Shown here: piece by piece, positions 35,076-61,673 of the stretch | Layout: every line of letters begins with the position of its first letter | Numbering within the stretch: the stretch's first letter is position 1 | Source of the DNA: Paraspadella gotoi | Taxonomy: Eukaryota; Animalia; Chaetognatha | Direction: 5' to 3' | Assembly: GCA_051294375.1 (NCBI GenBank) | Contig: CM119264.1 | Location: 2,497,631 to 2,561,630 of the forward strand | Length of the DNA stretch: 64,000 nt | Program-made: the position numbers and the translations under genes | Notes under the pieces: generated by a model | What the model was told of the DNA's origin: nothing | What the model saw: the letters and a program-made list of their open reading frames with translations, nothing else | The model's database searches: none

Positions 35076-35757
35076 TCACAAGTTGCACTTTTGTTTCGGG
35101 ACGAGGGTGAACTTTTCCTCCACGCCAATCTTCGTGGCGCAGAGGGTGGCGCCGGCGCCATGCTTATGCCACGTGTCGACGCCATCGGCTTTGAGACGCA
35201 GATAATAGGTCCGACCGGAAGAAGGATGAAGATGGGCGAAGGAGATGGAACCGTCGGGGTTAGAGATGATTTCGAATTGGGCGTTCGGTCTGGGAAAAAG
35301 TGGAAGGAGATGGGGAAGTAGGAAAGCGGTTGCCGTTGGAGGTATTTAAAACTAAGGATGGGAAATAATAATTAATATCGTGGCGAAAATAATACGTTTC
35401 TCTCTTCTCTCTCTGTCTCGCGCTTTAGTTTCTTATCACGTCAAATTCTTTTTTAACTAAAATAATGAAAATATAGTTAAAGGTTTCCTCAAAATATAAA
35501 TGAAAATGTAGGGAAAATAAAATAAACTTCTGGGATTCAAACACATAGTTAAAATAACAATTTTAATTCGTCGCCCTCTCCCGGTTGCCAGATTAAACAC
35601 GCGAATTTTTTGGCGTCAAATTTAAGTTTTTTTTTCCCCAGAGAATAAGACTTTTTCTTGGTTCCCTTTTTGGGTAGTTTAAAAATACTTAAATATATTC
35701 TTCTGTACAAGAGTTAAAACTATTTTTCTGTATTAGAGTTAGTTGGCAGGAATTAGA

Positions 35758-35790
<33 letters not shown>

Positions 35791-38334
35791 NNNNNNNNNN
35801 AAAAAAAAAAGGTCTTTAAATTACCACGAGTTAACGAGGCTGAAATTAGCGAGATACCCGTTATAACGAGATACCCGTTATAACGAGACTGAGAATCAAC
35901 GAGATTAACGACTTAATGAAGCAAAAGCTTAAACGTCGGATTTCGAGTTGACGATTTCATGATTAGAATATGAGGTCGTTGAACGATTGAACGGTTCGAA
36001 AATAAAAATTAATTTATTAATTTAAAAACTTAAATAATAACAAAAATAATCTAAAAATTAATTTATTAATTTAAAAACTTAAATAATAACAAAAATAATC
36101 TAAAAATTAATTTATTAATTTAAAAACTTAAATAATAACAAAAATAATCTAAAAAATAATTTATTAATTTAAAAAATTAATTAATAACAAAAATAATCTA
36201 AAAATTAATTTATTAATTTTTTTGCCTTTTTATTTCAACCGGATATCGCTTTCCCAGATTTTATTATTTTCTCTTTCCCTTTTGTTTTCTTTTCTTTTCT
36301 TTTCTCACTTCATACCCTCGTCCATCGGTCAACGCGACTTCGCAGCCTTTCTTCGCGACCCGCATGGCCACGGCCTTCTCCGGCCACGCCCTCGGGATCA
36401 GCGAGACCCGCAGCCGGGCACCGCTGACCCAGACGGGCAGGAGGTCGAAGGATTCCGCGCCGCCGCTGTAGCAGCCGAACTGGGCGTTGAGCAGCGAAAG
36501 GCCGGGGTCGGCCCGGAGGAAGGCGTTGGGGACGAAGAAGGAGCNNNNNNNNNNNNNNNNNNNNNNNNNNNNNNNNNNNNNNNNNNNNNNNNNNNNNNNN
36601 NNNNNNNNNNNNNNNNNNNNNNNNNNNNNNNNNNNNNNNNNNNNNNNNNNNNNNNNAAGAAGGAGAAGGTGAAGGCAATTTGTAATGCCTATCAATTATT
36701 ATTGGCATAATTATCAATCGTCTATCGTCTTTATTGTTTATAACAATAATAATTCAAACGTCGTCTTCTTAATCTTCATTGATTTTTAGTTATCATCATC
36801 ATCATCATAATAATAATAATAATAATAATAATTATAATAATAATAATATAATAATAATTAATAATAATAATAATAATAATCATCATCATCATCATCATTT
36901 TCCTTACCTATACCCGACGTGAGCCATATCGGCTTCACGTGATCATCAAGTGAGTCTCACAGCCGAGTTGGGGCATCCCGCCGTAACCGTGGACAGCGAC
37001 GACCGTCTTCTTGCCATCGCCTGGGATGGAGGAGGAGGAGGAGGAGGAGGAGGAGAGGAGGAAGAGAGAGGAGGAGAAAGGAAAAAAGGAGGAGGAGGAG
37101 AAGGAAGAGGAAGGAGAAGGAGAAGAGCAGGAAAGGAGGAGGGGGAGAGAAGAAGAGGAGGAGGAGGAGAAGGAAGAAGAGCAGGAAGAGGAGGAGGTGG
37201 AGAAGAGGAGGAGGAGGAGGAGAAGGATGAGAACTTTTTAAATCAATTTTCTTAATGTACACAACGTTTTATGAATTGACTTTAAAATTCCAAAAACAAG
37301 AATCAGTCCCAGTTTTATCCTTTTGTCTGAAATCCGTCCTACTTGAGTTATGCTATTGACTTCGCTTATTTAAAAATATACATTTAAATATTTTCACTTT
37401 TCTTTTAAAAATTTTTTTTTTCTTAATCATTGCCATTTTTTAAAGATATTATTAGCCACCAATCTAATTAGAATCTTGTTAGAAAGTCATTTATTGAAAA
37501 GTCAAAATATCTAAAAGTCTGAACAGAAAAGGGTGGAGGTGATAATTTCTTATGGGATAAATGTTATCTATGATTCGTTACTGTTGAGGAATAAAAATAT
37601 AGAGTATAATTGTAGGTTGTATGTTGTATAATGTATATATGTTGCAATCATAACATTAATAAACTCCCCCTCCCTCTTTTCGCTCTCACCGATGTCCACA
37701 AAGACTGGACTTCCGCTCTGCCCGCCGTACGTGTCGGCCATGTAGTAGATCCTATAGTCGGACACTGACTGGATCGGTCCGTCTATCTCCCACATGGTGC
37801 CGGGCAGCTTGTCCCCAGGATATCCGCAAGTGGACATCCGTTTGGCGGAGAGGGACGACGCCGACTGGGAGGACGTCCAAGGGAATCCGGTGATGTTGAG
37901 AGTTTTATCTGTTTGGAGGAGGAAAAGGTGAGGGGAGGTCGGTTGTGAGGTGAGAAGGTAAGGAGGTGAGAAAGTGAGTTTGTGAGGAAACGAAACTGTG
38001 ACTGTGAATGGAAGGGATTTTCGTAAATACCTTTTAATTTTTGATAAAGCATTAAGAATACCGTATCAATATTTACGTATTGTGTATCATGTAATACTTA
38101 TTTTATTGCTTCGTCCTCCTTTGGTCGAATCCGTCAGATCTGATTCCATCTCAATTTTTAAATCTAAATCCCGTTTTGTTTTTTTTAAATAAATCCTAAA
38201 CATCGAAAAATCACAATCCCTCTTTCTCCGTCAGTCACGTGACCACTCACCGGCGCCGCGGGCGTCGAACTTCTCCTTGAGGTAGACGGCGCCGATGTCG
38301 TGATTTGCGGCGCCGATCGATTTGTAGCGCGAAT
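35076..38334 (-). CDS. 3' exons of a V8-like glutamyl endopeptidase (S1B) plus C-terminal fascin-like beta-trefoil
   Basis: Exon 38251-38334+ NHDIGAVYL (catalytic Asp). Exon 37690-37908 CGYPGDKLPGTMW..YMADTYGGQSGSPVF (catalytic Ser). Exon ~36908-37020 VVAVHGYGG(CPNSAVRLT) with an apparent indel. Exons 36316-~36560 (partly N gap) and 35076-35289 encode trefoil-like repeats. GT-AG boundaries in frame. Confidence 0.8.
36004..36220. repeat. 49-bp AT-rich tandem repeat (~4.5 copies)
   Basis: AAAAATTAATTTATTAATTTAAAAACTTAAATAATAACAAAAATAATCT repeated in a protease intron. Confidence 0.85.
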
Positions 38335-38359
38335 NNNNNNNNNNNNNNNNNNNNNNNNN
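38335..38359. other. Assembly gap at duplication junction (other gaps 35791-35800, 36545-36656, 60847-60871)
   Basis: Runs of N. Confidence 0.99.
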
Positions 38360-38959
38360 AAAATATCAAAGATTCCGGTTTAAAGAAAAGCAGAGATAAT
38401 GCATCCTCAATAAATTTGCTGGCCAAGATTTATCGGAGTAATCCTTTGACCGGAGAAAATTACATTATAGAAATGATTAAGCTGGAAAATTCTAAACTAA
38501 CCTATACTTCAGATTGGATTCGAATCATCATTAATTTTTTAAAATGACATCCAGTTTTAGCCATACTTGAAAAAAAATTAAACATATTCATTTCATTTTT
38601 TAGTTAATTCATATTATGTTTAATTAGTGAACGTCATTTTCCGGTTAACAAAACTAATCAGGTTAATAAGGTAAAAGGATGACGAAGTATTTTTAATACA
38701 AAATCTAGACTACATAGAATGAATTGATGCGAGTGTAACAAAATTAGTTTGTTAACCGATACTTATGAAAGCTTTATTATTAAAAATTTCTTCTATTTCG
38801 AACCCAAACGTCATACCCCTCCAGACTAGACGTCACTATTGTAATAGCTAAAAAAAAATAAACCTTCCCACTATTAACTTGAAATACTTCGGGTAATCTT
38901 TCTTACGGAAATTACGGCTCCAAAAGTAGGACCACCATCGAGTCTGTGATATGAACATG

Positions 38960-41042
38960 CCACATACAAGTCTGAGCGCCACTGAAGATCTCTCAAGAAA
39001 TCCTGATGGAGCGAAAATGCGAAAGGTAAAAAAAAAAAAAAACGCGTAAAAAGAGTAGCAAAGGCACTTGGCATGAGTGTCAACGTTGAGGGCGCTTTGC
39101 CGGCGGGAAGCGACTCGTCGCCTTTATCTGCGTCGATCGCCCATGGCGGCCTTTATCCTTTCTTCTTCCTTTCGTCTCTCCCTCCTTTCGGGATTCTCCA
39201 CGTTTTGATCGATGTCGCGTCGTCGGTCTTCGTCGTCGACGGCACGTCCGGCGTAGGTTCGTCCGTCTTTTTCTCCGCCTGCGGCGACGGCAGTGTCGGC
39301 GCCGTCTTCGTCTTCGTCTCCGCCGCGCCGCGGCAGCAGCAGAAGATGATCAGGATGACGACCGGGTAAGGCGACGACGACGACGTAGACGAAACCAAAG
39401 ATGGGATTCCGACGGCGATTGCGGGTAGAATATCGAAGATGATTCTCCTGCGGCGGCTGACGCCGCCCCCTCCTGTTTCAGCTTTCAACCTTCCACGTCT
39501 CGTCCGTCCAACTGTGGAAGAACATGAAGACTCGAGGTTGGAATACAGCTTATCACATCATCATCCCACAACTTCCAGTACTCTGGACTATCACTATCAC
39601 CATCACCCCTCCTATCAACAACGGCGACGTTGCTCGGCCAAAGATGAAATGTCGAAGGCGATATTCTCGCTTCATCGTCCAGAGTTCGAGTCCGATGGCG
39701 GCGAGGGTGTGATCCTCGAACGCCGATTCGCTTCTCGAAGTAGTCGCGGAGTTCTTTATCTTCGCGGCTTCCAGATTCCGCTGTAGCCGGATTGTTGATG
39801 AGTGGCGGTCGCCGATTTGCCCTAAGGCCGGATATCGATCATCGGGGCCGACAGGGGCCGCATCTGGCAGCGCTGACAGGCGGGTCCCACAGGGAGGCCT
39901 CCCAGTCCCGTTCCATTCGTCGTCCAATCGGCCGGTCTTTCCGCCGTGCTGCTCGGAATCAATGGGCCTCTTTCGTCCTCCAGCCAACCTTAAATAAATT
40001 CGCTATTAATGAAGACAAAAACAAAAAAAAAAGAACTAAACATTCTTAAGTGACGTCTCACCCTCGGGTTTGACGGCCGTTCCTCGTCGAGGATATCTGG
40101 GTGCGTCCTCGTCCCAATCATCGCTTGACTTGCATCGGGATCATCAATCTTCCTCTCGCTCGTCCCAGTCCGCGGGTTTCTGTTTTGGATCGTGATCAAT
40201 CTCCTCCGGGACGATGGCGGCCTCATGTCTTGAGCAGATGACCCCTGACGGAGGGTCAGCGTTGTCACTTCATTGGACGGTTATAAAATAATTTCAGGAG
40301 GACAAACTTACTTTGACAAGACGCTCCCGTCCACTGACATCTGGTAGGACGAGTCTCCATTGAGCACGAGCCTGGAGGACGTGCGTCTTTCCCACGTCTC
40401 GAAATATTTGGTGTGAAGGCAGTCGACCTTCTTGGCTGCTTCTCTCCACGGCGCCAGAGACTCGGATGGACGTGACGAAGGATGAAGTGGAACTTTTCCT
40501 CTGAAGCCGCAACGGTCGGACCGAACATGCATAGCTGAGGGGTTTTGTCGTGGAACTGTGTAGTCAGCGCCCTCCTCCACCCGAGGAGCAGCTTACGTTA
40601 GGCGCCGCGCAAGGTGTGCTCCCGTACTGGAACTTGACCCTCGTACTAAAGACGACGGCTTGCCTTCGCGGGTCGAAAGGCGCGTCCAGTTTGGCGGCAA
40701 TGTCGTGGTGCTTTGCCTTGTCGCGCATGACGAGGGCAAAGCGTCCGTCGAGGCGACCCCACCGACGTCGCCTCCACGCGCCAGCGTCCTTTCTAATTTG
40801 GCAGATGTCGTCGTCCACTCCGTCTTTGGACGCCGTCGAAGGCACGAACCGCTTGAGGGCTCTGAAGACGAAAACGGCTCCGCAAAGATAATGCCAGGCC
40901 CCGTCCATTTTGGGCTCCACGTAGAGAGGTACTTCCGCACGGTGCGTTTCGTCACCGTAAGCGGAAGCGAGAGCCAGCCAACGAGAAAATCATCAATAAG
41001 TTTGTGGAAATTATCCTTTGAGTAAATCTGCCATGTCGTCAT
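38960..41042 (-). pseudogene. Frameshifted calnexin copy (probably sequencing artefact, not a real pseudogene)
   Basis: Fragments [47 protein letters not shown] scattered over frames; introns retained. Confidence 0.7.
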
Positions 41043-44000
41043 TTTCTATCACAGTTATTACGCTAATTTGAAGATGGCGATAATTATAAATGAGAATGGT
41101 TCTATATATTACTTTTTCTTGAAAAAAACTAATTACGGGAGCATAATCATTAATTAATTAATCTATAAAAAACAATTCCCGTTAAATTTGTTGCGAAAGA
41201 GAAAATATGTAATACAACTTTCTTTTTACAAGCGCGAAAAAATTATTTTTCAATTACGCGCGACGTCTAGAACCTCCATTAATTACAACACTCAAACTTT
41301 AATTCACGATGGAACGGACTCCACGATGCGAGGGACGATGCGCTTCTACCTTTTCACTGGGAGCCGCCTTCCCTCGTGTTCACGGTAATTTCCTCCGATC
41401 CAGGGACACGTTCATTACAAGAAAATTCATAATGATTAAAAGAAAAAAAATACCGACGACCACGGTCACCGCGACGCGAAAAACGAGGTCGAAATCCGGA
41501 ATCCGCTAGGTCCGTCTTTCCGTTGGGCCGATCGATACTTTACCCTCCTCGCCTTTTCCTTTTTTTTTTCTTTTTTTTTCGTAATTTCATATATTTTTTT
41601 CTTTGGCTCGAAAAACTGTTTTTGTGTCTCCACATGGCGACAGACTCCGTATCAAGGCGGAGGCGGGAAATGACGGTAGGGCGAGGAGGAGGAGGAGGAA
41701 GAGGAAGAAGAGAGAAAAGAAAGGCGAAGGAGAGAAGAAAAGAAAGAGATATTTGTAATAAGAAGGGGCAAGAGGAAGAAGAAGGAAGATGAGTTAAGTC
41801 TGAAATAACGACAAGAAAGCTGGAAGGAAAGATAGAAGAAAAAGGAGGAGGAGGAGCAGGGAAGTGAAGTAGCAACGGTCACTCTTCTTTTTCGGTCTTC
41901 TTCTCCTTCTCTCCTTCCCATCCCTATTGAATGAGCGTGCTTATTTATTATTAACATATACTTCTAAAATTTAAGGCTATGAGGAAAGAAAATAACTATT
42001 TAGTAGCTGTTTATCTTGTTATTATGATTTTTTTAAATTTACGTATATTTAGGCCTCACTCTGCTTCTAATGTTTTTTTCTTTATTTTTTGATTTAAACC
42101 CACTTATATCATTCGGATGACTATAGTATATTGTAAATATATAATATGAGGTCCAGAAATAATTAGATCAGCTTATGATGAAAATGGAATACACTAGTTA
42201 AATTCTGTTATAAACCCAGTTCATAGATTCCTGTTTCTACTTGGCCCACTTGACTTTTCCTTTCAATTCCTAGATGAGAGCAAGCACATGCACTATTAAG
42301 TTTGCATGTTAATGAGACTTTACCTTCACCTTTCTCTCTTTAATTTCTTTTCTTTTCAAAGTCTTATCTATCTCTCTCTTTTCGCTATGATGAAAATTGG
42401 AAAAACCTGGGTTCCTCTGAAAGGTTGCAAAACGTCACGACTACGCCAGGCGCACTTTCTCTCTCTCTCTCTCCTTCTCTCTCTCTCTCTCTCTCTGCTG
42501 TTCTTCTCCCCCCAAGGCATATTAGAAAAAAGGCTCTGAAAGGACATTCTCGCAATGGCAACGCTTCCATTTGATTCCAGCACTGGACAGTAACGGTGAC
42601 GAATGAGGTTTTGACCTTCCGTGTGTGCGCCGTTGTCTCGCCAGATTCGAAATTCCGTTTTTCCAAATTGAATGTGGTGGTCGCGTATATGGAGAAAAAT
42701 GAAGGATGGGAAAAGGATTAATTCTTTTGTCCTAATGGGATTTGGCAATGGATCACTTATTTAACCTTGCTGTGCCAGTGTGCACTGTTGAACTTTGTTC
42801 TGGCTGTTTTTAACATGATAAAAATTCTGTATACTACAATATTCTAAGTACATAGAGGACTACATCAACGCCAACGCATCTCTCATGCTTATGATTTCTT
42901 TTCAGTCTGCTTCTTACTTCTTAGAACCTGTACGTTTTTTCGAATTCCGTTAACGGATGTGGGTCAGACGACAAGTCGAAGGACGAGAAGTTCGTGTCTT
43001 GGAAATATTAGAATTTTGGAAATTACGCCAGAAAGTTTAAAACCACCACTGCTGAACTGTTATAAAGTTACTGAATATTAATTATTCAAATCAGTAAGAA
43101 TTATAGTTTTACGTTGAATATGCAAAGTGATAAAATTTTCGTAAATAACCAACGACAACTCAAAAAGAATAAATCAATCACGAAATCAATTTTAGGTTAC
43201 AAAATATATTGGAGTTGGCAAAACTTATTCATTATGTGACTAATTATTGAAAGAAATAAAAAAGACATCGAAAACATTGTAAGAAAATGTACATTTAAAT
43301 TCGCGTATTTCCGACTCCCCGACGAGCCGAACTGGGTTCGACTGTGAAAAAAAAATACAAAAACGGCTCACCTAAAATTTTCAAAAGTTATTTGTTCGAT
43401 TGTCGATTGTTGGAAAACGAGTTATTTGGTTTCTGATGGCGATAGTAATAAATCACCCGCGAATATGATACTTATATATTTATTAAATTATACTGATTAA
43501 TAAGTTCATATCAGATGAAAAGAGTTACGAAACTTATTTACTTTTTCACGCTTATCGTATAAAAATAATCAAAAATGACGTTAAAAATTGCCCAAATTGA
43601 TCTATTAGATTTCATGTCGTAATAAATTGAGGAAAACCTAAAAAAACCCGCAAAACCGTAGGTGATCACTCATGACTCAAAAAATGTGTCAGCGAGTCAT
43701 CAATATCATCTGATCATACTTATTCCTTTTTTTCCCCTTTTTCACTACATTTAATTTTTCCCTTTTTTAAATCTTTGGTTTATCGTTTAATTCTCAATGC
43801 TTGGTCGCCAAGCTTGGTTTTTGAACACATTTGGGTGCCAATCAGAGTTTTAAACAAATTGTAGTTTCAACGTTATCGATTCTCCGACTTAATTTTTTTG
43901 TACCACGGTAAATCCGAATAGAAAAAAAAAAAAGGGAAAAAAACGCTCCCCCGTAGATCTTCAAGTTTGATAAAATGATCTGTCGACGAACTGATCAAAA

Positions 44001-44432
44001 TGTTTGCAATTACTTTTCGAATCTTATTATAAAAAAAGAAAGGATGAAGACTTTAAAGGCACACACGCCGCTCTATCTTCTCTTTCATCACAATCTTAGT
44101 CCTGAGGGAAAGACTTTTTATTTTCTTTTATCGCCAACAAAAGAAATTAAAAAAAAAAAAGGATTTCGTAAAGAATAAAAAAAGGAGAAAAGAAAAGCGA
44201 AATTTGAATCGCGATTCGAATTTTTGATTTTCGCCTTTGGTGATTGGTGATTAACACACGAGTGATTAACTTGGGTGATCGTCGCGACACTCGGAATGGG
44301 GAAGGCGTTGGAGAGAACTTTACTTCACTTGATCTCTTTCTTCTACTTAAAGACTATCAACCGAATTTATTTGTAATAATTATTTTTTCGATTAAGGATA
44401 ATTAATTAAAAAAAAAAATATAACCTCTCAAG

Positions 44433-46954
44433 ATGCCTCGCTGACAGTCGAATTCGCCTTCGGCACCTGATTTTCTTCGCCGTCGCTTTTTATTCTTTCG
44501 TCGCTTCAACAAAAGGCGAATTCGCTGTCAGGAAACGACGGACGACGCGACGACGACAACGACGACGTCGAACGAACGAGCGACGACGACGACGACAACG
44601 TCCGCCCTTAGGGTCACAGACTCGTCTGAAAGACAATTTCCAATTTGGGTAAGAGTTCTTTCCGCTAGGAAAAGAGCGCGCGGTCTTGAAGACGTGTGGT
44701 CTAAAAGGCGAGGGCAGTCTTAAATGCGTTTGGTCTTGAAAGGCCGTGTGGTCTTAAAGGCATATAGTCCTCAAGACGTGTCAATGGATCGGTCTTAAAG
44801 TAGTCTTAAAACTAAGAGATACTTAAAGGCGCCCGTGATCTTAAGATGTGATGTCGTAAAGATACGTGTCCAAATGGTGTGTCGTGTCTTAAAGCAGCAC
44901 AATCCTAATTACTTAACGGATGCAACCGCCCAGTCCTAAGTCCGCTGCTGAATGTAAAGGGCGCGCAGTCTAAAAGACGCGCGGTCTTAAAGGGCTCAAA
45001 CTCGATGACAAATGGTCTTTTTCTTCTCGCGTTTAGAAATTTGAAAATGGGGCTGACGTAGCCGAAGATTAGTTTCGACTACAACGGACATTCGCCTACG
45101 ACGAGCGATCGTCGCAGGCCTTTGCCATTCTCCATTAAAAAATGTTTAATCTCTACGATTAAAGTTTTACAAAATTAAAAACTTGTTTCTCGAAAAAAAT
45201 CAAGTTTTGCGGAAACAACGGATGAAAGACGGGCAAAATTATAGATTGCACTCCGGTGATTATCATTTTTTAAAATATATCGAAATTTATAAATACGTTG
45301 GTGATTGATTATGCTTCGCATTTCCTACGGAACAAAATTTTTTTTGAAGAATACATTAAGATCTAATCATTTATTCCGTTCTTCCTTCCCTTAATTGCGC
45401 GAAAAATTCAATTAACAAACCTGGAACACGAAAAGACAACGCAGCACTTCCGCTGAAAAATACAAGCTTCCGCGGTGACAGCGCTCGAGCGGGAAAAAAG
45501 AAAGTTCGTGACAGGAAACGACGGGAAGAACAAAAGGCTGCTTTCGAAAATCATTAAAAAAAATGGAGTGAAAAAAAAACACATTAAGAAAATAATTGAA
45601 AAACGAGATTAAAATTATTTCTGTCCGGTGCATTGATATAACCTCTAAAGCAAGGCGATTAATTTCAACACCCATGTATGGGGAAAAAGAAGTCCCATTA
45701 AGTTTTTGATACCCGAGACCTAACTCGACTCTCGAGTCATTGAGGAAGATTGGTTTTTAGCCGGGCCAGAGTGTGGGGGGGGGGAGAGAGGGGGGTTACA
45801 GCGGCCAAAATTATTGCTGGTTGGAGAGATTTGTTATAGTGAGAGTTAGATCGGATGTATGTTGGATGTGGGACTTCTAAGAGAAGTAAAGGTTATCCTC
45901 TCTCAGAAGCGAGGTTGGGGTATCTGGTTGGAGAGGAGAGAGAACTCAAAAATATGACCTCGCCCTCTCCCTTTAGAATACCGGCGATTATGTTTATGGA
46001 TGCCATATTAGAGGATTAAACCGAAGATGCGAGGAGAAGGGAGAGAGAGAAAAGAAGAAACCTTGGAGAAGTGATGCGATATAGCAGGAGAGAGACGTCA
46101 CGCGTACACGAAAGAGAGAGAGAGCAGAGAGAGAAAGGAAGAGAGATGAGAGAGCAGAGAATGAGAGATGAGAGTGGGAACAAGGCGGCCAAAATACCCA
46201 TTTGGTTTTAGAGACAGACGGACACCGGCGCGACAGAGAGGAAAGATAAGAAAGACTGCACATAGCGAAGACGTTAGCTTTGGTTTTCAAAAATAGTTTG
46301 AACAACGTAAATTTTTTTTTAACATTAAAATCAAAGACGAAAAATTTTTTTTTTTAGAAAAAAATATCGGAATTCAGTCAATAACATCATCGACGAACGA
46401 CATCTCCCTGTCGACGTTGCTGCTGCTGCTACTGGCTGCTGCGGCAACAACTCGGCGACTACAAATTGGTAAACAAAAACAAATTATAACGTTAATATCG
46501 ATTTTTTCTAAACATACCAGTTAGTTTTTTTTCCATTATTTTTTCTCCTTTGTTTTAACTTCTATATTTTTCCTTTCTTTATCTCTGCTTCTATTTTTAT
46601 TCTGTTTTCCTCCATCCATTCCATTCTGTTTTTCGGTTTTCAAATAGAGCGACTTTTTCACGCTCATTTTTTTTCTGCTCCGGAATGAGTTTTCAATCAT
46701 ATGCTATTTTTTTCTCCTAACACTCGACGTATTTTGTCTTCCACCCCATCCCCGTCCATTCCCGGGTCCATTCTCGGTCCGATCCCGGTTCGATCTTCCT
46801 GTCCCGAATCCGGCGCTATAACGTCCAGTCCCAACTTTGATCTATGTTTTCGATTCTGACTTCCGTCTTCAAGCGGGCACTAACGTTTTAGTAAGGGATA
46901 TGGAATCAATGTGGCTAAATATAATTTGCAATAATTCATTTTCCCCTCTCTCTC

Positions 46955-46990
<36 letters not shown>

Positions 46991-47004
46991 CTCTCTCTCT
47001 TCTC

Positions 47005-47043
<39 letters not shown>

Positions 47044-50000: not shown

Positions 50001-51840
50001 TCTATCTGTCTGCTCTGTCTGTCCTATATATCTATCTTATCTCTCTATCTATCTATCTATCTATCTATCTATCCTATCTATTTCTATCTAATCTATCTAT
50101 CTATATATCTGTCTATCTATTTCTTATCGGTCTATCTATCTATCTATCTATCTATCATATCTATCTAATCTATCTATCTATCTATCTATCTATCTAGTCT
50201 ATCTATCTATCTATCTATTCTATCTATTTAATAGATTTGGGCCTTCCTTTCTTTCTTTCTTTCTTTCTTTCTTTTTTCTGTTCTTTCTTATATGTATCTC
50301 TCTCTCTCTCTTCCTGCTACGTTCCTACTCTCTCTCTCTCTCTCTTCTGTCTCTCTCTCTCTCTCCTCTCTTCTCTTCTCTCTCTCTCTCCATTCTCTCT
50401 TTTCTTCAGAGATCCGATCAACTGCGAGTCGAGAACGAAGGTTTGCGACAGACGACGAAAAGAAATTCCTCGCTTTCAGAAAATTCTCGTACGGATGTCC
50501 CGAGCAAAGGTTCGACTCGGTTCTTTGTGTCGGTTTTTATTAAAAATTACAATTAATTAAATTAATTAATTTATTTCTAACATGCCTGTCCAAAGCCTGT
50601 CCAAAGTCACGGGCTAGCTTATGATTAAATGAATAGATAAATTTATATTTGGTTGCTACCAAATGTTCATGAGATTACACAATTTAAATCATGAGCAACT
50701 TATTAAGCGAAAGAAAGACAGTATTGTAAAAAAAATGATTACAGCTTTTCCTCGTTGCCTATAGAAAAACGACGCGATGTTGCGACGAAATCGGAACGAC
50801 GGATTTTTGGGATGAGAAAAAATTCGAGGAAGAAGGGAAACGTCGTCGAACGACGTCGTCGACTGACGAGCGAACATCCGAGGGAAAATGGAGAGTTGCA
50901 GGACTAAGGGTGACATTACGAGGAGTAACAAAGACATTTATTCAGTGTACAGATTTTTACATTCGCACTTTTTTTTTCTCTCGAGTCCAATTTCAGAATC
51001 TAATGTACCATGATGGAGAGCGTAAATAACACATGTTGAAAAAGTTGAAGGTTAGAAAGTTGACATTTTTGCGCAGTGAATACTCGATGGTAATTTTACT
51101 CATACGAGCCTTAATAAAATTTCTTTTATTATTTTTTGTTTTGACTTAAAAGGTCGACAAACATTTTTACGTCAACGAGGGACAAACCGAAATTCAGTGT
51201 GCGAAAATTCATAACGTCTGTGGAAAATGAAACTAAGGGCTCACACGAAAATTTCTCCATTATAAGTCTATAACTATATTAACTATAGAGCATTATATAA
51301 ATACTGCTATTCATAATCTAAAAATTATAGTCCTTATTTTAAGGAGTTCCCCCAACGGAGCGAGGGAACGCCCAGATTTCTTCTCGCAACGTAAGTCCAA
51401 AAATGACAATGACAAACAAGCGTCTACAAGAGCAAAAAGTTGCCAAACGTTGATTTAATTTAAATATAACTTGTTTGAACGGCACACGTCTGATAATTCT
51501 AAATAATTTTAAATAATTCTAAATAATTCCTAATAAATTTTCCGTTTTTTTTAATTTCATTCCCCATTTTTCTTCTTTTCTGATAACGCCCCTTGTTCTT
51601 TGTCAGACTGTTCGAACCTGCCATGGGTCCACCTACCGAGTCTACGAAATTCAACCCCGACTTCCATGGAACAACAGTCAGCATCGCCAAAGCCGTCCCA
51701 ACCTTGAGTTTTCGTCTTTTGCCGAAAATTATTGGGTATTTTTTTTTTTTTTTTACTGTGCTTCTCTTCTTGAGATGTCCTCAAGTCTCTCTCCTCTTCT
51801 TTTCTCTTCTCTCTCTTCTCTCTCTCTCTCATCTCTCTTC

Positions 51841-51871
<31 letters not shown>

Positions 51872-53865
51872 CTCCTCTCTCTTGCTCTCTTTCAATCTCT
51901 CCAAAGGTCGAATGTGGACTGTGATCCAGCGACGGTTGCGCCAAACGAACCCGGACCCCTCCCGCCGCGGCCTTCGCATCAGACGTGGGACGCTACCAAA
52001 AGAGGCTTTCGGGAATTTAGAGGGATGTGATGAGTGGAACATGGACTTGGACATTGGACTTTACAATGACAATGACTGGTGGCCAGTGACTATCGAACTT
52101 TTCAGACATTTGATGACATATGTAGTTGACGCAATTTGTAATAAACGACAAAGGATAAAACAAATAACCAAGAAAATTTCCAAATAAAAGCCACAAGCGG
52201 ACTAATCCAAAAAATCCATAATGCTTAGATTTTTTTCAGGAATTTTGGATCGGGAACGAGGTTCTCACGCTGTTGGACGGGACACTCCGATCGCGGGCGT
52301 CTTTCGGTCGTCGTCGTCGCTCGTCCTCTCGTCCTCCATGTGGACATGACGTCTTGGAACGGATCCCGCTTTCTTTCGCGGAATATGACGATTTTTGGTC
52401 GGATGAGAAGAGAGACTTCTATCAAGGTCAGGGGATTGGTAGACGTCGTTCGTCATCTGTTGTCGTCGTCTGCATCCATATCAACATCTTTTGTTGTTCA
52501 TCGTCGTCGTCATCGTCGTCATCTTGTATTGTCGTCTTTGTCGTCTTTGTTGTCATCTTCATCATCACAATTGTCTTCTTCGTACTTTTCCCTCCGTTCA
52601 CTGATCACGCGTCGAATTATCGCGGCAACGCTGGCGATGCCCATTGCGCGATAGACCGCGACGACGGATTCGCCGCTACGCGAAGACCGCAACGACGATC
52701 GCGCTATCGGCGAAGACCGCAACGACGATCGCCGCTACGGCAAAACCGCGACGAAGAATTGATTCGGCCGGCGAATTCGAGGGGAAAGAATTCGTCCCCT
52801 AATTCGTTTTCGTCCGCCAAAGATTACCCAGTCTTTTCCGGGTGGGTCGGAGAGGCTGTGGTTGTGGGCAGTGAGCAAGTGGGCAGTAGAGCTAGGTAGG
52901 AAAGCGACTGCCGGCTTGTGTCGCCACATGATCTAAGCACGTGAGAACGGTTGGCAATGGGCAGTGCGAGGGGGTAAATGGGCTGCTAGTTTGTGGTCGG
53001 TCTAATATCTAAGCATGCGGAGGTGTTGAAGTGCGACAACAGTCCACGGCACAGGACCGTGCGTCCAATTTCGGGTAAATTGTGTTCGAAATTTACTAAT
53101 TTGAATTGATGTATTAGTTTGAGTTTATTGAAATTAGGAGGAGCGACGGAAGAAGGATCATCCGTTCGTTCACTGAAAAAGTTCGCATGCAAGGCGCCTT
53201 TGGGTGGTTCCCTCTTGTCCTGGTGAATCATTAAGTTTTTATAATAATTTAATTTATTAAAATTTATAAATAGTGAAGGAGGTCTTGTAAAAAACCGAAT
53301 AAACTTTTCAATATATTAGTATATTATTGTTTTTTTCAGTTTTGCAACAACCTTTTTGCGACGTGATTTTACAATTTTAATTCAACGTTAATCTACGATA
53401 TTTTGTCTGTCTATGACTAAAAAAAAAAGGCAAATGTGCCTAGTGTAAAGTTGAACCATAATGATAATATTCATCTCATGATTTTCATTGATATACTTAA
53501 TACTTTTCCAATTTGCCAATGTTCTGCAATGATGCTAATTGTTTTATTGAATTTTATTTTAGTGCCATTGTGCAATTATTCTTGCTCAATACTCATTATT
53601 GTTAATGTCCATATTGATTCAAATCGTTTAATCTTCTTATTGTTCTTTAATTGTCAAAATTTTCTTCTTCTATTTCAGAAAAAAAATAATTTTTTTTTGA
53701 TTTCCCTTTTTTTTTCCTTTCAGCGAACTCATCTGACACTCTAACATTCATTTGGCTCCGTAATTGCTCGACTCTGTCAGAGCACATTATCAGTCCTTCA
53801 ACAGATGAAGTTTGAGTCCCATAAGAGAATCTTCCCAGAATGGCGCGAGATGGAACGACATCTGA
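44433..53865 (+). pseudogene. Frameshifted copy of the FReD gene (probably artefact)
   Basis: Colinear with 25656-34556 (WTVIQRR, FAEYDDFW, NYRGNAGD) with dense indels. Confidence 0.7.
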
Positions 53866-54413
53866 CGCTGACATGACATCACATAACGATAGCACGATGA
53901 TATAAGATTCACAAAATAAGACAATTTTTTTGTCGTTTAATTTAGGAAACTGTTGTGTGTACGAATGTCGCACGACGAAAAGTAAATCATATTTAAAAAA
54001 AAATATCTAAATTATTTTCGTTGACACGGTCCCAAATTTGATGTTGACTTTGCGAACGGCAAACTTTATCTCTCGTTTTTCTAAAAATCTTGTCGCTTCT
54101 GATCGTTTTAGTCTGTGTGCTGTGTGAGAAAAACCAAACTGTTATTCTGTCCCTTACGTCTTTACCCAAAACGTTAATACGAAAATTTTAAAAAAAGTAC
54201 TTAAACAGAATCCAATAAATGTAGCAATCTTGGCCTTACAGATTATGAATTTTTAATGTATTATCTCGAAATGTAAAAATTGATTTTATGTGATTTGATT
54301 CGTTTTACAAAATCGATTGTTAATTCATTGCAGTTGTTTTTTTTTTTTTTAACATTCCACAAAACCGAAGTCAAATTAAAAAAGAAAAGGAAAAAAAGTT
54401 TTTTCCCTTTTTC

Positions 54414-57400
54414 TCACAAGTTGCACTTTTTGTTTCGGGACGCGAGGTGTAACTTTCCCTCCACGCCAATCATTCCGTGCAGCGCAAGAGCGGTTGGCGC
54501 CGCCGCCATGCTTATGCACACGTGTCGACGCCCATCGGCTTTGAGACGCAGATAATAGGTCTACGACCGAAGAGGTGAAGATGGGCGAAGGAGATGGAAC
54601 CGTCGGGGGTAGAGATGATTTTCGAATGGGCTGTTCGTCTGGAAAAAAGTAGCGAAGATAGGAATGTTTAGGGAAGTAGGGAAAGCGGTTGCCGTTGGAG
54701 GATTATAAAACTAAGGTATGGGAAATAATAATTAATATTCGTGGCGGAAAAAATACGTTTTCTCTCTTCTCTCTCCTGTCTCCGCCCGCTTAGTTTCTTA
54801 TCACGTCAAATTCTTTTTTAACTAAAATAATAAAAATATAGTTAAAGGTTTCCTCAAATATAAATGAAAAATGTAGGGAAAATAAAATAAACTTTGGGAT
54901 TCAAACACATAGTTTAAAATAACAATTTTAATTCGTCGCCCTCTACCCGTTGCCAGATATAAACTACCTGCGAATTTTTTGGCGTTCAAATTTAAGTTTT
55001 TTTTTCCCAGAGAATAAGAACTTTTTCTTGGGTTCCCTTTTTGGGTAGTTTTAAAAATACTTAAATATATTTTTTGCTACAAGGTTTAAAACTATTTTTC
55101 TGATTATTAGAGTTTAGTTGGCAGGAATTTAGAACGACGGACGACGACGACGACGACGACGATGGTCTCCGAGGCAAGAAAAAAAGGCTCTTTAAAAATA
55201 TCCACGAGTTAACGAGGCTGAAATTAGCGAGAATATCGTATTAATTATACCCGTTCTTTTCAATCCGGATGGAATCAACGAATTAACGACTTAATGAAGC
55301 AAAAGCAAACGTCTGGATTTCGAGGTTGACGATTCATGATTAGAATATGAACGGTCGTGAACGATTGAACGGTTCGAAAATTAAAAATTAATTTATAATT
55401 TAAAAACTTAAATAATAACAAAAAATAATCTATAAAATTAATTGTATTAATTTTAAAAACTTATCAATAATAACAAAAATAATCTAAAATAATTAATTTA
55501 TTAATTTAAAAATTAAAATATAACAAAGAAATTAATCTAAAAATAAATTTAATTTAATTTAAAAAATTACAATTAATAACAAAAATAATCTAAATTAATT
55601 TATTAATTTTTTTGCCTTTTTTCATTTCAAGGTCCGTGATATATCGCTTTCCAGATTTATAATATTTTCTCTTTCCCTCTTTGTTTCTTTTCTTCTTTCT
55701 CACTTCTACCCTCCGTCCATGGCGTCAACGCGAGCCTCGCAGCCTTTCTTCGCGACCCGCATGCCGAGCGGCCTTCTTCACCGGACCACGCCCTCTGGGA
55801 ATCAGCGAGACTCCGCAGCCGCGGCACCGCTTGACCCAGACGGCACGAGGTCGAAGGATTCCGCGCCGCCGCTGTATCGACCAACTGGGCGTTGAATGGC
55901 ATGCGAAAAGGCCGGGTGTCGCGCACGGAAGGAAGCGTCTGGGACAGAAGAAGTGAGCGACGCATCTGTCGAGACCCTGAGGGGGGAGACTAGTTGGGGG
56001 AGTTGGTGGGGGGTAAGAAGGAAGAAGGTGAATGGCAATTTGTAATGCCTTATTCAATTACTATTGGCATTATTATACAATCTGATCTATCGTCTATTTA
56101 ATTGATAATATATAACCAAATTAATAAATTCAAACGTCGTCTTACTTATCTTCATTGATATATATTAGTATCTCATCATCATCATCATATAATAAATAAT
56201 AAATAATAAATAATAATAATAATAATAATAATTAATAATAATAATATAATAATAATTCAATAATAATAAACTAAATAAATATCATCATCATCATCATCAC
56301 TTTTCCATTACCTATACCCGCACGTGAGCCACTATCGGCTATCTACTCGTGATCATCACGATGAGTCTCAACAGCCGAGTTTGGGGCATCCCGACCGTTA
56401 ACCGTGGACAGCGACGACCGTCTTCGTTGCCATCGCCTGGAGGAGGAGGACGTGAGGAGGAGGAGAGGAAAGGTGAAAGAGAAGAAGAGAGAAGAGGAAA
56501 AAAAGGCAGGGAGGGGAGAAGGAAAGAGGAGTGAGAAGAGAAGAAGAGCAGGAAGAGAGGGGGAGAAAGAAAAGAGGAGGAGGAGAGAAGAAGCACAGAG
56601 CAGGCAGAGGAGGAGGTGGAGAAGAGGAGGAGGAGGAGGAGAAGGATGAGAAACCTCTTTTAAATCAATTTTCTTAATGTACACAAACGTTTATGAATTT
56701 GACTTTAAAATATTCCAAAAACAAGAATCGAGTCCCAGTTTTATCCTTTTGTCTGAGAAACCGTCCTATCTTCGAGTTTGCTATTGACTTCGCTTATTAA
56801 AACACTTATCTACATGTCATATATTTTCACTTTTCTTTTTTAAAAATTTTTTTTTCTAATCTATGCCGATTTTTTTAAAGATATTATAGCCACCCAATCT
56901 AATTGAATCTGTTAGAAATTCATTTATTGAAAGTCAAAAATCTCAAAGTACCCTGAACAGAAAAAGGGTGCGGGTGATTAATTTCTTATATGGGCATAAA
57001 TGTATGCGCTTATGATTGCGTTACTGTTGAGGAATTAAAAATATTAGAGTATGAATTGTAGTGTATGTCTGATAAAAAATGATATACTGTTGCCTATATG
57101 CCATAACATAATATAAAGCCTTCCCCCTCATCTTTTCCGCTCTGGCACCGATGTCCACAAAGCACTGGACTTCCGCTCTCCCGCGTACGTGTCGCCAGTG
57201 TATGTAGATCCTATAGTCGACACGTGACTGGTTGCGGTCCGTCTATCTCCCACTGGTGCCCTGGGCAGCTTGTCCCCAGGACTATCGCGCAAGTCTGGAC
57301 ATCGTTTGCGAGAGGGACGACGCGACTGGAGAGGACGGTCCAACGGGATCCGGTGCGATTTGAGATAGTTTTTATCTGTGGCTGGAGCGCAGAAAAGTGA

Positions 57401-57868
57401 GGAGGTCGGTTGTGAGGTGAGAAAGGCTAAAGAGGTGATGGAAAGTGAGTTTGTGAGGAAACGCGAAACTGTGACGGGAAATGAAGGATCGAGAATAGGC
57501 CTGTATTAATCTTGATAACTCAGATAAGATAGCCGTGATGCGTAATATTTCACGTCATTGTGCTCATCTTATGTAATTCACTTATTTATCTGCTTGCGGC
57601 TCCTCCTTGGTCGAATCCGTCAGACTCCTGATCAGTCCAATTTAAGCTAATACCCGGTTTTGTTTTTTAATAAATCAAATCCTTAAACTCGAAAAATCAC
57701 AATCCGCTCTTCACTCCGTCAGTCACGACTCACGTGACCACCTCACCCGCCTGTCGGTCCAACTCCACACGGAGACGTCCTTCGATGTCGTGATTTGCTC
57801 TCCGATCGATTGTAGCGCGAATCCGCGTAAAGGTCGAGGAGCGTCAAGACTATCCACGCCGATCTCCA
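54414..57868 (-). pseudogene. Frameshifted copy of the protease/beta-trefoil 3' exons; physically contiguous with the 5' exons
   Basis: Colinear with 35076-38334. Fills the first copy's N gaps and extends the Asp exon to an acceptor near 57870. Confidence 0.65.
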
Positions 57869-58356
57869 CTATAACAATCCACTAAAACATACAATCAATT
57901 CAATGCATTCAATCAATCAATCAAATCAAATCAATCACATACACAATCAAATCAATCAATCCCAATTCAACACCAATAAGGATATTAATTAAACTTATCA
58001 CCCACATAAAATAATATCAATCCAAATAATCTTCGAAACACGGAAGAAAAAAAATCCGAACGTAAGTAAATCAAAACCCGCCCTCACCAAAAATAAATGA
58101 GTAAACCAATCCTCCCTCCATCTCCTCTTCCCCCCTTCCTTCACCCCTCACCCCCTTCCCGCCCCCTCCCCGCTTTTCCTACCTCGCCCCCCCTAAAAAA
58201 AGACAAGAGTTTGTTGCTTTACTATTTCATTTTAAGTAAAAATCAAAGAAATTACTTTTCTTGAATTAAAATCCCGACGACGACGGAGAAAAAAAAAGAT
58301 GCAATCGCAAATATCAAAACCAGAAATGAGGATTTTTAAAAAATGTGTGAAAGAAG

Positions 58357-58998
58357 AAAAACAAGATCGGTTCATCCAATGTGTTGCGCCGCAGTGACTT
58401 TATTTTCACGTGTATTTTACCTTTGATCACATGATATGACATGACATGGCATGACTAAAAAACTTTCTTAGCCCTTGTATTGCACTGCATTAAAATTCCG
58501 TCTTTTATTCCTTATAGTTTTAGGATTTCCTGAAAGCGGCGCAAGCAGTCCCTTAGATTTGAGGTTTTTTCTGTCTTAAAAAATGAGCAACCAACTATAG
58601 CCTAATTATATGCATTTTTAATCTAAGTGGGACAAACCGATGAACAGACATACCGACTAACAGATCAACCGTGTTGTTGTTGTTAGTTGCGCCTCGAGTA
58701 CTCATGGAGCAACTCTATGTTGGTTGGTTGGTCCATCTGTTGGTCGATCCTTCAGTATGTCTGTCCGTCAGTCTGTCCCACTTACGTTACGCTCATTTGT
58801 TAAGAAAAAAAAAACAACACAAATCTAAGGGACTTCTAGCTCCGACTTCAGGAATTCCTAAAACTATAAAGAATAAAGATGCAAAGCATGTCATAAATTG
58901 ACGGCAAAAAAAGTTTTTTAGTCATGTCATGTCATGTCATACCACGTGAAAATAAAGTCACTGCGGCGCAACACATTGGAATAACCGTTCTTGTTTTT
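58357..58998. mobile_element. Two head-to-head copies of a HINE/DINE-1-like non-autonomous element forming a ~640-bp imperfect palindrome
   Basis: The plus copy 58683-58998 starts TTAGTTGCGCC..AGCAACTCTA, has a GGTT/GTCC-type microsatellite and ends ..GCGGCGCAACACATTGGAATAACCGTTCTTGTTTT. 58357-58670 is a diverged, 5'-truncated reverse-complement copy. Confidence 0.65.
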
Positions 58999-59015
58999 TT
59001 TAAATCTTCGTTTAC

Positions 59016-60016
59016 CCTGGACACTTGACGACGATTTTTCCCGCCAAACCTCCATAGTAACTACCCAGCCATGTACAGTGGGCGCTGGTTAACATGATCG
59101 ACCCCGAAATCCCGGGAACCTTAAGTTGAAGAGGATATCAACTACAGTGGTCGACTTTAATTTTCAACGTCGGAGGCTTAGTGGTTTTTTAGCAAACAGT
59201 TGTTCAGATTTAGGACTGAATATTCTGCTGAATTAGTCAAAGAACCTACACTGTAATTCAGTGTCAACGATCACCCTCTGACAACCAATCTACGGTCAAC
59301 TAAAGAACATATTGTAAATGTAATTGTAGCAATCGTAATTTATTTTCCATCGCACGTTGAGAATGAATCCGGTTCCAGTCCAGTATCCGTTAGAGTTTTT
59401 CTGTGCGTAGATCTTGAGGTAACACGTCCACTGGTAGTGCTCGTGATCCGTCTTCAGAACCTCCAACCGCTCGTCGGTGCTGCCGCAAACTGAGCGGTCG
59501 GCGCCGATAAGCTGGAAGGCGAGGATTCGATGGACTGAGTGATTGATTGATTAATTAATTAATTGATTGATTGATTAATTGATTGATTGAATTGATTTGA
59601 TTTGATTTATTTGATTGATTGATTGATTAATTCACAGATTTATCTTTCCAGTGAATGAGTGACTGAGTTCTCGATTGGCGATTGATTGATAAATTTATTG
59701 ACTGATTGGCGATTGATTGATAGTTTTTTAATTTGATTGATCGTTTGATTAACTATCATATTTAATCAATCAAACCTTCGCTGATTCATTCATTCATTCA
59801 TTCATTCATTCATTCATTCATTCATTTACCTTCGAGATGTCTCCCAACCAATGATCTTTATAAGAGTCCGGATCCTCGTCGTGAATTTTCGGTCCAACCA
59901 TCTCTTTGGAATTGTAAAATCGCATGAAGGATCACAACACTTCTCTCTATCTTTCTCTCTCTCTCCTCTCTCTCCTCCTCTCTTCTCTCTCTCTCTCTCT
60001 ATCATCTATCTAATCT

Positions 60017-60085: not shown

Positions 60086-60124
<39 letters not shown>

Positions 60125-60130
60125 TCTCTT

Positions 60131-60161
<31 letters not shown>

Positions 60162-60165
60162 CCTA

Positions 60166-60239
<74 letters not shown>

Positions 60240-61673
60240 TATCTTTCTTCTCTCCCTTCTCCCTCTCTCTCTCTCTTTCTCTCCTCTCTCCTCTCTTCTT
60301 CCTCCCTCTATCTCTCTTTCTCTCCTCTCCTCTCCTCTCTCTCTCATCTTCTCTCTCCTCTCTCTCTCTCTCTCTCCTCTCTCTTTCTCTCTCTCTCTAT
60401 CTATCTTTCTCTCTCTCTCTCTTCTATCTATCTTCTTCTCTCTCTCTCTCTCTCTCTCTCCTTCTCTCTCTCTCTCTCTCTCTCCCTAATCGGCGTCCCG
60501 CTAATCCTTCTCCTTCTCCCACTCTCTCTCTGTCTCTCTCTTCTCTCTCTCTCTCTCCTCTTTAGGATGGCCGTCTTCAGCACGTGTGATTTTACAATTC
60601 CAAAAGATGTTGGACCGAAATCACACGAGCGATCGGAACTCTTATAAAGATCACTTGTTGGAACATTCTCGAAGAAAGAATGAATGAGATGAATGAATTA
60701 ATGATGAATCACGAAGGTTTGATTGATTAAATTATTGAAGTTATCAAACCGACAATCAAATTAAAAAACTATCAACAATGCCCGTCATTAAATCATCAAT
60801 AAATTATCAATCAATCGCCAATCGAAACCATCACTCATTCTTCCCGNNNNNNNNNNNNNNNNNNNNNNNNNGAGAGAGAAAAAACCCAATCGTGTGAAAC
60901 AAAAGAAAATCTTCTTTTGAGGTCAAAGTTAAAAGAAACAAAGAAAGAAACAAAGAAAACAAATCAGACGAAACAAGAAAAACAAAGCGGAGAAACGAGG
61001 GCTTCGTAACTCGAGGTCGATTTTCTCGAAGAATCGTTGAGGCGAAAAAAGGGATTTGGAGGAAAGAGAGGAAAAAGAAAACAAAAACAAAAACAAAAAC
61101 AATAATAAAAATAACGACAAAAAATTAAAAAAAAAGAAAAAAATCAAATTAAAAAGAAAATGAAAAAAAACAAACCAACAAAATAGATATCATATCATAT
61201 CATATCATATCATATCATATCACATCCTATTGACTGCCGACTACCGACTCCCTGTTACGTTTACCACAAAGAAAAATTCCAAAAAATTGATTTTAAATTA
61301 TACGTCTAATTTGACTGTTGGAAAAATTTATTTATTTACTGTATTCCTAAACAATCATAAAAGATCGAAAAGAATACCAAAGGTCACTGATAATTTTTAT
61401 GAGTTTTACATCCTTAACTTTCTCTCCTTTTTTTTCTCCAGATGCTTTTCCTTCAGAATTCCGATGAGTTTTCACTCGTCCCTCACCATTCAAACTCACG
61501 AAACTGACTCACCCTCTTCATTTCTCACTTCGGCCCCAAAGTTTAACCTTACCTTCTTTCCAATTCTCACCTAATTCTCCGTGCCCGAGTTTCCCCGCAG
61601 CCGGCGCCGCCACCACAGCGGTGGGCAGCGTCGCCGCCGCCGCCGCCGCCACCAACATCAACGTCCAAAACAT
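59016..61673 (-). CDS. 5' exons of the V8-like glutamyl endopeptidase: signal peptide, propeptide, mature N-terminus, catalytic His
   Basis: Exon 61571-61673 MFWTLMLVAAAAAATLPTAVVA (signal); 59830-59903 propeptide; 59356-59534 RSVCGSTDERLEV..YQWTCYLKI..YWTGTGFILN; 59016-59119 VPGISGSIMLTSAHC..IVVKCPG. The join into the 59356-59534 exon is out of frame as assembled (indel or missed exon). Confidence 0.75.
59941..60560. repeat. Long imperfect (CT)n microsatellite
   Basis: ~600 bp of CT repeats. Confidence 0.9.
60575..60846 (+). repeat. Noisy inverted copy of ~59645-59920 ending at an N gap
   Basis: GATTTTACAATTCCAAAAGATGTTGGACCGAAA..CTCTTATAAAGATCA.. is the reverse complement of the propeptide exon and flanking intron, with many indels. 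Confidence 0.8.

Follow-up and report, generated by a model that had tools for sequence, protein, structure and literature searches.

A spliced arrow-worm gene for a V8-type protease with a predicted beta-trefoil and a likely bacterial ancestry

Gene structure and splicing at the locus

We analysed a window of 64,000 nucleotides from the genome of the arrow worm Paraspadella gotoi (Chaetognatha; assembly GCA_051294375.1, contig CM119264.1, forward-strand positions 2,497,631 to 2,561,630), whose minus strand carries a V8-type protease gene of nine exons and eight introns (Table 1). Our account, in which we have moderate confidence, is as follows. The gene belongs to the host and is spliced, and its product is a V8-type serine protease with a predicted beta-trefoil that is likely secreted and likely prefers Glu. 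Its likely source is a two-domain gene of bacteria that passed into animals in the distant past. A preliminary description of the window, made from the sequence alone, had proposed a bacterial-type glutamyl endopeptidase carried as an intron-containing animal gene. All motifs that it quoted could be located on the minus strand, and the GT-AG introns it reported were largely borne out, with GT donors at eight of eight introns and AG acceptors at five of eight in clean sequence; the other three acceptors fall in noisy sequence or behind N-gaps. Two independent full-length proteins, P0001 (425 aa) and P0002 (471 aa, representing seven near-identical orthologues in JGI/IMG), are each encoded by a single open reading frame (ORF) on a contig of 1.6-2 kb. 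In tblastn searches both align with exons 2-9 in the expected succession, which places the exon set far beyond chance. These orthologues show 63-85% identity to the window in protease exons 3-6 and 34-56% in exons 8-9, and both keep every readable exon in one frame.

Table 1. Features of the protease gene and assembly artefacts within it (positions in the window).
Feature	Positions	Strand	Remarks
Exon 1	61571..61673	-	Start codon ATG at 61673, predicted signal peptide, start of propeptide; GT donor
Exon 2, readable 3' part	59830..59931	-	Propeptide; tblastn match to P0001 (67% over 21 aa) and P0002; GT donor
Exon 3	59356..59511	-	Arg closing the propeptide; mature protein predicted to begin with Ser-Val-Cys-Gly; first strands; 63-69% identity to P0001/P0002; AG/GT ends
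Exon 4	59016..59119	-	Catalytic His; 85% identity to P0001/P0002; AG/GT ends
Exon 5, 3' part, copy A	38251..38334	-	Catalytic Asp; tblastn match; covered by run X9 contig
Intron 5	37909..38250	-	342 nt, GT-AG; spliced out in run X9 contig
Exon 6	37690..37908	-	GYPGD motif, Thr190, catalytic Ser; 64-69% identity to P0001/P0002; run X9 cover with 0 differences
Exon 7	36914..37020	-	His213, Gly216, second conserved Cys; two-frame tblastn match
Exon 8 (5' end in N-gap)	36316..36544	-	First part of predicted beta-trefoil; 53-56% identity to P0001/P0002
Exon 9	35076..35289	-	End of predicted beta-trefoil and stop codon; 34-38% identity to P0001/P0002, same C-terminus
Motif positions	SVCG 59493; GTGF 59376; TSAHC 59089; HDIG 38302; GYPGD 37825; DTYGG 37735; AVHG 36997	-	
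Likely false tandem duplication (copy B)	38360..57822	.	Noisy copies of exons 5-9 inside
Inverted noisy copy of exon 2 and flank	60585..60840	+	81% match to 59653-59924; adjoins N-gap 60847-60871

The gene region was present in nine runs from three studies under one organism label, namely eight DNA runs and one further run, X9, presumed to be RNA. Run X9 contained 0.25 of the query words, which is about the exon share of the query, and yielded a contig of 2,946 nt in which position 38251 is joined to 37908, so that intron 5 is skipped exactly at its GT-AG ends. The same joint was found in none of three DNA runs, which cover both exons and intron. The loose end of the contig corresponds to the start of exon 7, i.e. 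the next join, and its upstream side extends for a further 468 nt. The missing part of exon 5 together with exons 4 and 3 would take up 301 nt, so that this length fits a 5' join to exons 3 and 4. GC content at third codon positions (GC3) is 0.59-0.89 in the exons and 0.61-0.75 in neighbouring genes, i.e. the two ranges overlap. We conclude that the protease gene is a real, transcribed and spliced host gene. Contamination, which had already been called unlikely in the preliminary description, is ruled out by the introns, the splicing in run X9 and the host-like GC3, and the presence of the region in eight DNA runs also speaks against it.

The 26-kb span from 35076 to 61673 initially given for the gene proved to be inflated. 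In a self-comparison of the window, 19618-38334 (copy A) recurs as copy B with 80-90% similarity. Relative to copy A, copy B shows 1140 gap openings with 1195 inserted versus 453 deleted bases, transitions and transversions at 241:454, and similar error rates in calnexin coding and intergenic sequence. An excess of insertions together with such an error pattern marks an unpolished long read, and copy B is therefore to be read as one rather than as an aged duplicate; the insertion excess and the random transition to transversion ratio argue against a real decayed tandem duplicate. DNA contigs of three runs fit copy A over 37640-38334, 16 of 18 at 95% identity or above. Based on its error pattern rather than on reads, whose cover extended over 37640-38334, copy B is likely a false duplication by assembly. 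We likewise rejected the reading that the His and Asp exons are separated by a true intron of 20 kb harbouring other genes, since the near-duplicate copy B accounts for this distance. Since copy B is a repeat, exons 1-4 run directly into the noisy exons 5-9, with the clean copies one repeat further, and the collapsed gene spans approximately 7,260 bp (ca. 7.3 kb). The inverted copy of exon 2 is probably a fold-back read artefact. Copy B also makes calnexin and a gene with a fibrinogen domain appear a second time in frameshifted form, and these versions are not to be read as pseudogenes. The locus serves as a warning that raw-read duplications in this assembly inflate gene models.

Exon 7 contains a frame break near 36975 and stop codons in the assembly and was translated with X at the break, read cover being restricted to the segment given above. 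The 5' part of exon 2 is lost within noisy, repeat-rich sequence, and that of exon 5 lies within an N-gap, with a noisy duplicate near 57745-57885. Owing to the defects of exon 7 and the unreadable parts of exons 2, 5 and 8, the window holds no complete clean ORF. A pseudogene or chimeric assembly yielding no intact protein would explain these defects together with the N-gaps, the false duplication and the fold-back within the gene, but is very improbable given the spliced contig, six readable exon pieces that are free of stops, the intact orthologues and the location of the breaks beside gap-filled sequence.

Neighbouring genes carry laminin, F5/8, calreticulin (calnexin), fibrinogen and, weakly, PX domains, which supports the placement of the protease gene in the host genome. 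Positions 1-22300 hold four closely spaced genes on the minus strand, possibly an operon-like cluster, that encode a PX-domain protein (weak match), a laminin which we take to be gamma-like, an F5/8-domain protein, presumably neurexin IV/Caspr-like, and calnexin. The plus strand carries, at about 30600-33900, a gene for a protein with a fibrinogen C-terminal domain and an insert of Asp/Arg-rich repeats. Intron 4 of the protease gene contains a self-inverted element (58354-59001) with long terminal inverted arms that resembles a miniature inverted-repeat transposable element.

Protease and beta-trefoil domains

Exon 6 alone matched V8 protease (E 1.5e-8) and 13 other bacterial S1B sequences in a phmmer search, with animal trypsin absent from the matches. 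Pfam Trypsin gave no match and Trypsin_2 only one below cut-off. Animal trypsins (family S1A) have an IVGG-type N-terminus and Asp194 within GDSGGP; at these places the window protein has SVCG and GQSGSP and so lacks the S1A hallmarks. The best PDB profile match was the glutamyl endopeptidase of Bacillus intermedius (BIGEP; E 6e-27). For structural comparison, the orthologue P0002 rather than the window protein itself was modelled with AlphaFold; the model was built from an 80-row alignment with a predicted local distance difference test score (pLDDT) of 83; it supersedes an earlier model from a 9-row alignment (pLDDT 52), in which the C-terminal domain was unfolded. Among 48,161 chains, the model was closest to BIGEP (1p3e; Z 26.8, root-mean-square deviation (rmsd) 1.8 over 201 residues), followed by V8 (1qy6; Z 23.8), with the best animal protease at Z 20.6. 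Residues 83-315 of P0002 align on residues 1-215 of 1p3e, Ser83 falling on residue 1. Foldseek also returned BIGEP (1p3c) as the top match, its lists being filled by the protease domain. Sequence, profile and fold comparisons thus uphold the earlier assignment to the S1B enzymes of the V8/Bacillus type rather than to the trypsins.

The His-Asp-Ser triad is distributed over exons 4, 5 and 6; in an alignment of 80 rows, these three residues are retained in 74, 76 and 76, respectively. Thr190, His213 and Gly216 are also present and align to V8 and BIGEP. According to a review of glutamyl endopeptidases (PMC5508998, main text), the S1 set Thr/Ser190-His213-Gly216 of V8, BIGEP and Esp has the free amino group of residue 1 as its last element, and His213 is also common to Gln-specific enzymes. 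The Thr of DTYGG and the His of AVH, named in the preliminary description as the Glu-specificity residues, do align with Thr190 and His213, but as the latter is shared with Gln-specific enzymes a preference for Glu can only be called likely.

Two Cys residues, one at mature position 3 and one just after Gly216, are both present in 71, both absent in 66 and discordant in 4 of 141 scorable rows, where 60 of 201 rows are gapped and the rows are related and hence not independent. This co-variation suggests a disulfide near the site of an artificial lock engineered into Esp, and the pair probably ties the N-terminus at the S1 pocket.

Exon 1, which we infer to be joined to exon 2, encodes a hydrophobic leader with a peak of 2.16 on a crude hydropathy scale, compared with 2.3-2.8 in P0002, P0008 and P0004 and at most 0.93 in six coral-type proteins. 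Together with the register of Ser83 on BIGEP residue 1 in the model alignment, this would fit a likely secreted precursor with a predicted signal peptide and propeptide, in line with the initial prediction. Among 61 relatives matched by the pattern, 42 have Glu immediately ahead of the mature end (some of the non-Glu matches being off-site), which suggests self-activation in most relatives and in the ancestor. P0001 and P0002 have Asp at this place, the window protein and P0004 have Arg. The window zymogen would presumably be activated by a trypsin-like host enzyme that cuts after this Arg.

The preliminary description had assembled the exons from the signal peptide to AVHG, an order and frame supported by P0001 and P0002 from exon 2 onwards, but had missed the C-terminal domain encoded by exons 8 and 9, which is predicted to be a beta-trefoil. 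Residues 315-470 of P0002 match the ricin-type trefoil chain 3win_A (Z 17.9, rmsd 2.4, 137 residues), and the model has 12 strands in residues 320-465. Atlas neighbours of the domain are RicinB_lectin_2 and AbfB at 0.95, and the corresponding domain of the metagenomic locus L081 (see below) reaches a template modelling (TM) score of 0.82 to a ricin-B-type cluster. The module is poorly modelled by any Pfam family, AbfB scoring below cut-off in fused relatives and above it in some trefoil-only relatives. The trefoil is predicted to be lectin-like and may bind sugars. The same module was also seen on other domains (L100:796-1914, L102, P0264, P0336), namely an unassigned domain in Saccharothrix, a metallophosphoesterase and a subtilase. 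Further, P0003 (60% identity to exon 6) has the C-terminal half of the protease followed by EGF-like and Kazal domains in place of the trefoil, either through domain shuffling or as a chimeric transcript.

Relatives and origin of the fused gene

A profile search yielded 68 proteins at E ≤ 1e-10, with some 30 clusters of two-domain proteins of ca. 400 aa ranking highest. Of these, the only named ones were two proteins of the stony coral Oculina patagonica (P0113, P0208; genes ACROYT_G009758, ACROYT_G023617), which are annotated as hypothetical proteins only. A 50%-cluster library gave 242 proteins at E ≤ 1e-30. Look-alikes in the Atlas form one cluster with 92% eukaryotic members, among which Cnidaria predominate (12 of 62 having a known phylum), and a second that is 100% Ascomycota (83 members). 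The protease-trefoil family is a patchy eukaryotic one in which an S1B-type protease carries an added beta-trefoil. Coral-type genes are single ORFs on genomic contigs, i.e. intronless, and their products have no hydrophobic leader; some occur in several copies on contigs of one and the same length (P0043 and P0044 (834,935) and the P0117 cluster (703,156)), which suggests tandem expansion. NCBIfam held no family for P0002, P0039, P0224, P0046 or P0245. One supported subclade (P0228, P0233, P0234, P0238, P0239) shows Met-Gly starts and altered S1 residues, with Gln for His213 in four of five, and its members may be membrane-anchored with a changed specificity.

In a metagenome scan, 16 loci were found, eight of them with a fused protease-trefoil gene. 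Seven of these eight lie on contigs of 39-46% GC with little other coding sequence, and at L081 the fused gene sits on a gene-dense contig of 58% GC and adjoins an ATP-binding cassette (ABC) transporter ATPase gene. The protease and trefoil modules each occur separately in bacterial genomes, and in GTDB the protease occurs alone.

A protease-domain tree of 201 rows was obtained from 271 candidate rows by reduction at 72% identity. In this tree, the window falls together with every trefoil-bearing row in a single clade of 55 (Shimodaira-Hasegawa (SH) support 98) that contains no named bacterial locus, and every named row outside it is bacterial. In the wider Cys-pair subfamily, all named rows are bacterial. 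In a 50-row IQ-TREE tree that includes L081, support for the protease-trefoil clade was 96/99; L081 and similar bacterial-type fused rows branch first within it, although weakly (81/60, with bacterial outgroups). The window groups with P0001, P0002 and P0004 at 100/100 on a stem of 1.18 changes per column, with no supported sister. In reading these trees, it should be considered that groups were named after the trees had been seen, that labels were mostly inferred from sequence style and that LG+G4 without a mixture may join long branches.

The relatives in stony corals and the bacterial DNA fragment make it likely that the gene descends from bacteria and entered animals long ago. Transfer from bacteria or fungi followed by intron gain had been the proposal of the preliminary description. 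Of this, the bacterial ancestry stands as likely, but the presence of coral and likely fungal kin in the clade does not fit a lone recent event. Grouping with an inherited invertebrate clade, named there as evidence against transfer, was found in part, the nearest named relatives being stony-coral genes and a single old animal acquisition not being rejected by the tree tests. For PRSS23/35, also named there, a PRSS23-type active-site motif was found in none of 354 fetched proteins, which include the best 150 of the 242 profile matches, and the trees contain no labelled PRSS23/35.

The trees bear on how often the gene was transferred. It is conceivable, but somewhat unlikely in our judgement, that the small clade of the window, P0001, P0002 and P0004 received the fused gene from bacteria in a transfer of its own, independent of corals and fungi. 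The long stem without a supported sister would fit this, as would the rejection of a tree in which the window clade is held with five coral rows on the protease domain (approximately unbiased test, p-AU 0.028) while joining the window to four bacterial-type rows in a two-domain tree of 37 rows was not rejected (p 0.25); coral-type genes, intronless and leaderless, also differ from the window gene. However, joining the window to a clade of 16 coral-type rows in the same two-domain tree was not rejected either (p 0.10), all 28 putative animal rows fall on the same side in the best such tree (61/89, not significant), and coral-type proteins outscore L081, the two-domain region of P0002 reaching 201 bits against a coral-type protein versus 145 bits against L081. 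Separate transfer differs from our preferred reading only in the number of transfers, and the trees do not distinguish one old transfer from several.

An old eukaryotic gene of opisthokont or earlier age, inherited vertically and mostly lost, with the bacterial fused copies derived from eukaryotes, would be in keeping with the eukaryotic and ascomycete composition of the Atlas clusters and with the lack of fused genes among sampled bacterial genomes. We consider it quite unlikely: very many losses would be needed, every named row of either domain and of the wider Cys-pair subfamily is bacterial, the bacterial-type fused genes are the earliest to branch off, albeit weakly, and the coral-type genes are intronless.

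Several points weigh against our preferred account of a bacterial gene that became a spliced, secreted and Glu-preferring host protease. The bacterial context of the fused gene consists of the single 4.3-kb contig of L081, so that transfer from a eukaryote to a bacterium is possible. No trefoil was found within 3 kb of the protease at 80 GTDB loci, and the fused gene was found in none of 1,710 sampled bacterial genomes at thresholds from 1e-8 to 1e-35 (phylum draws with 4-6 candidates scored per genome), which is no proof of absence. Few clade members carry a taxon label. For the protein, the trefoil of P0001 and P0002 has no Pfam match at cut-off, and His213 is shared with Gln-specific enzymes. 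For the gene, the reading frame of the assembly is broken in exon 7, that run X9 is RNA is a guess, and the joining of exons 1-4 to the 3' exons is inferred.

Proposed function and comparison with known systems

In our proposed working cycle, the signal peptide would send the zymogen into the secretory path, where a cut after the Arg at the propeptide end, probably by a host trypsin-like enzyme, would free Ser1. The new amino end would then enter the S1 pocket formed by Thr190, His213 and Gly216 and favour Glu at P1, as in V8, Esp and BIGEP, with the co-varying Cys pair probably locking it there. The trefoil would probably serve to attach the protease to glycosylated surfaces. We consider it most likely that the enzyme digests prey protein outside the cell and so complements the specificities of trypsin and chymotrypsin. 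A role in prey capture or defence, venom-like or antimicrobial, with the trefoil aimed at prey or microbe cells, would also suit a secreted protease with a lectin-fold domain, and in bacteria this trefoil is joined to several enzyme domains. This alternative appears unlikely to us, as no such enzyme was found in the literature on chaetognath venom proteases at title and abstract level and the seven near-identical JGI/IMG orthologues fit an abundant transcript (a weak inference). The signal peptide and the eight introns were likely gained in this lineage after transfer.

A wider scenario, which is possible but rather doubtful as a whole, would describe a new eukaryotic family of V8-type, Glu-specific proteases. 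Here, a rare bacterial protease-trefoil fusion would have entered animals once or more, and ascomycetes apart, with the coral genes remaining free of introns and of a leader. Among arrow worms, the gene would have acquired eight introns, its product would have become a secreted zymogen, activation by a host enzyme at Arg would have replaced self-activation at Glu, and a natural disulfide would lock the amino end in the specificity pocket of an enzyme used in digesting or subduing prey. If animals do have a family of glutamyl endopeptidases, this specificity would be known from a broader range of organisms. The forms of one gene in bacteria, in corals (without introns) and in the intron-rich, secreted state would then constitute a natural series in which the domestication steps (leader, introns, activation site) could be ordered. 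The co-varying Cys pair further offers a natural test of whether Glu specificity is determined by the free amino end. The surprise is limited in that transfers of genes into invertebrates are already well known. Judged at title and abstract level, no description of the protease-trefoil family was found in the literature. The main text of PMC12460157 contains the words 'protease', 'peptidase', 'venom' and 'bacteria' 0 times, although its supplements could list the gene, and the glutamyl endopeptidase review (PMC5508998) deals with bacterial and viral enzymes, with 'eukaryot' occurring 0 times in its main text.

Among known systems, BIGEP (1P3C/1P3E, MEROPS S1B) shares with the window protein the triad, Thr190, His213 and Gly216 and, by prediction, the register of the mature N-terminus and the arrangement of signal peptide and propeptide. 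Identity is only ca. 23%, and the window adds the Cys pair, the beta-trefoil, eight introns and an animal host. V8 protease (1QY6) resembles it in the fold and exon 6 matches given above. In Esp (4JCN; mutants 6TYA and 6U1B, described as locked at the N-terminus in their PDB titles), the engineered D255C aligns within two residues of the natural second Cys of the family. Both V8 and Esp show ca. 20% identity and are without a trefoil, and the Esp lock is engineered whereas that of the window family would be natural. The bacterial SVCG...YGGCPN V8-like proteases of Moorena, Richelia, Rivularia, Anaerolineae and Chryseobacterium have the N- and C-terminal Cys motifs and 33-38% identity in the protease domain, but carry neither a trefoil (0 of 80 loci) nor introns; L081 has both domains. 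The stony-coral genes of Oculina patagonica share both domains, the Cys pair, the S1 residues and the clade, yet differ by ca. 30-35% identity, by being intronless and leaderless and by mostly having Glu before the mature end. In case of the trefoil, the Ricin-B/AbfB fold (3WIN chain A) is matched with the Z score given above at 10% identity and without a Pfam match at cut-off. Horizontally acquired, intronised digestive enzymes are known in invertebrates, e.g. the cellulases of nematodes and arthropods. The gene described here resembles this class in that an animal genome carries a microbial enzyme gene that has introns, encodes a predicted signal peptide and follows the codon use of the host, and it differs from this class in encoding a V8-type protease with relatives in several distant eukaryote groups.

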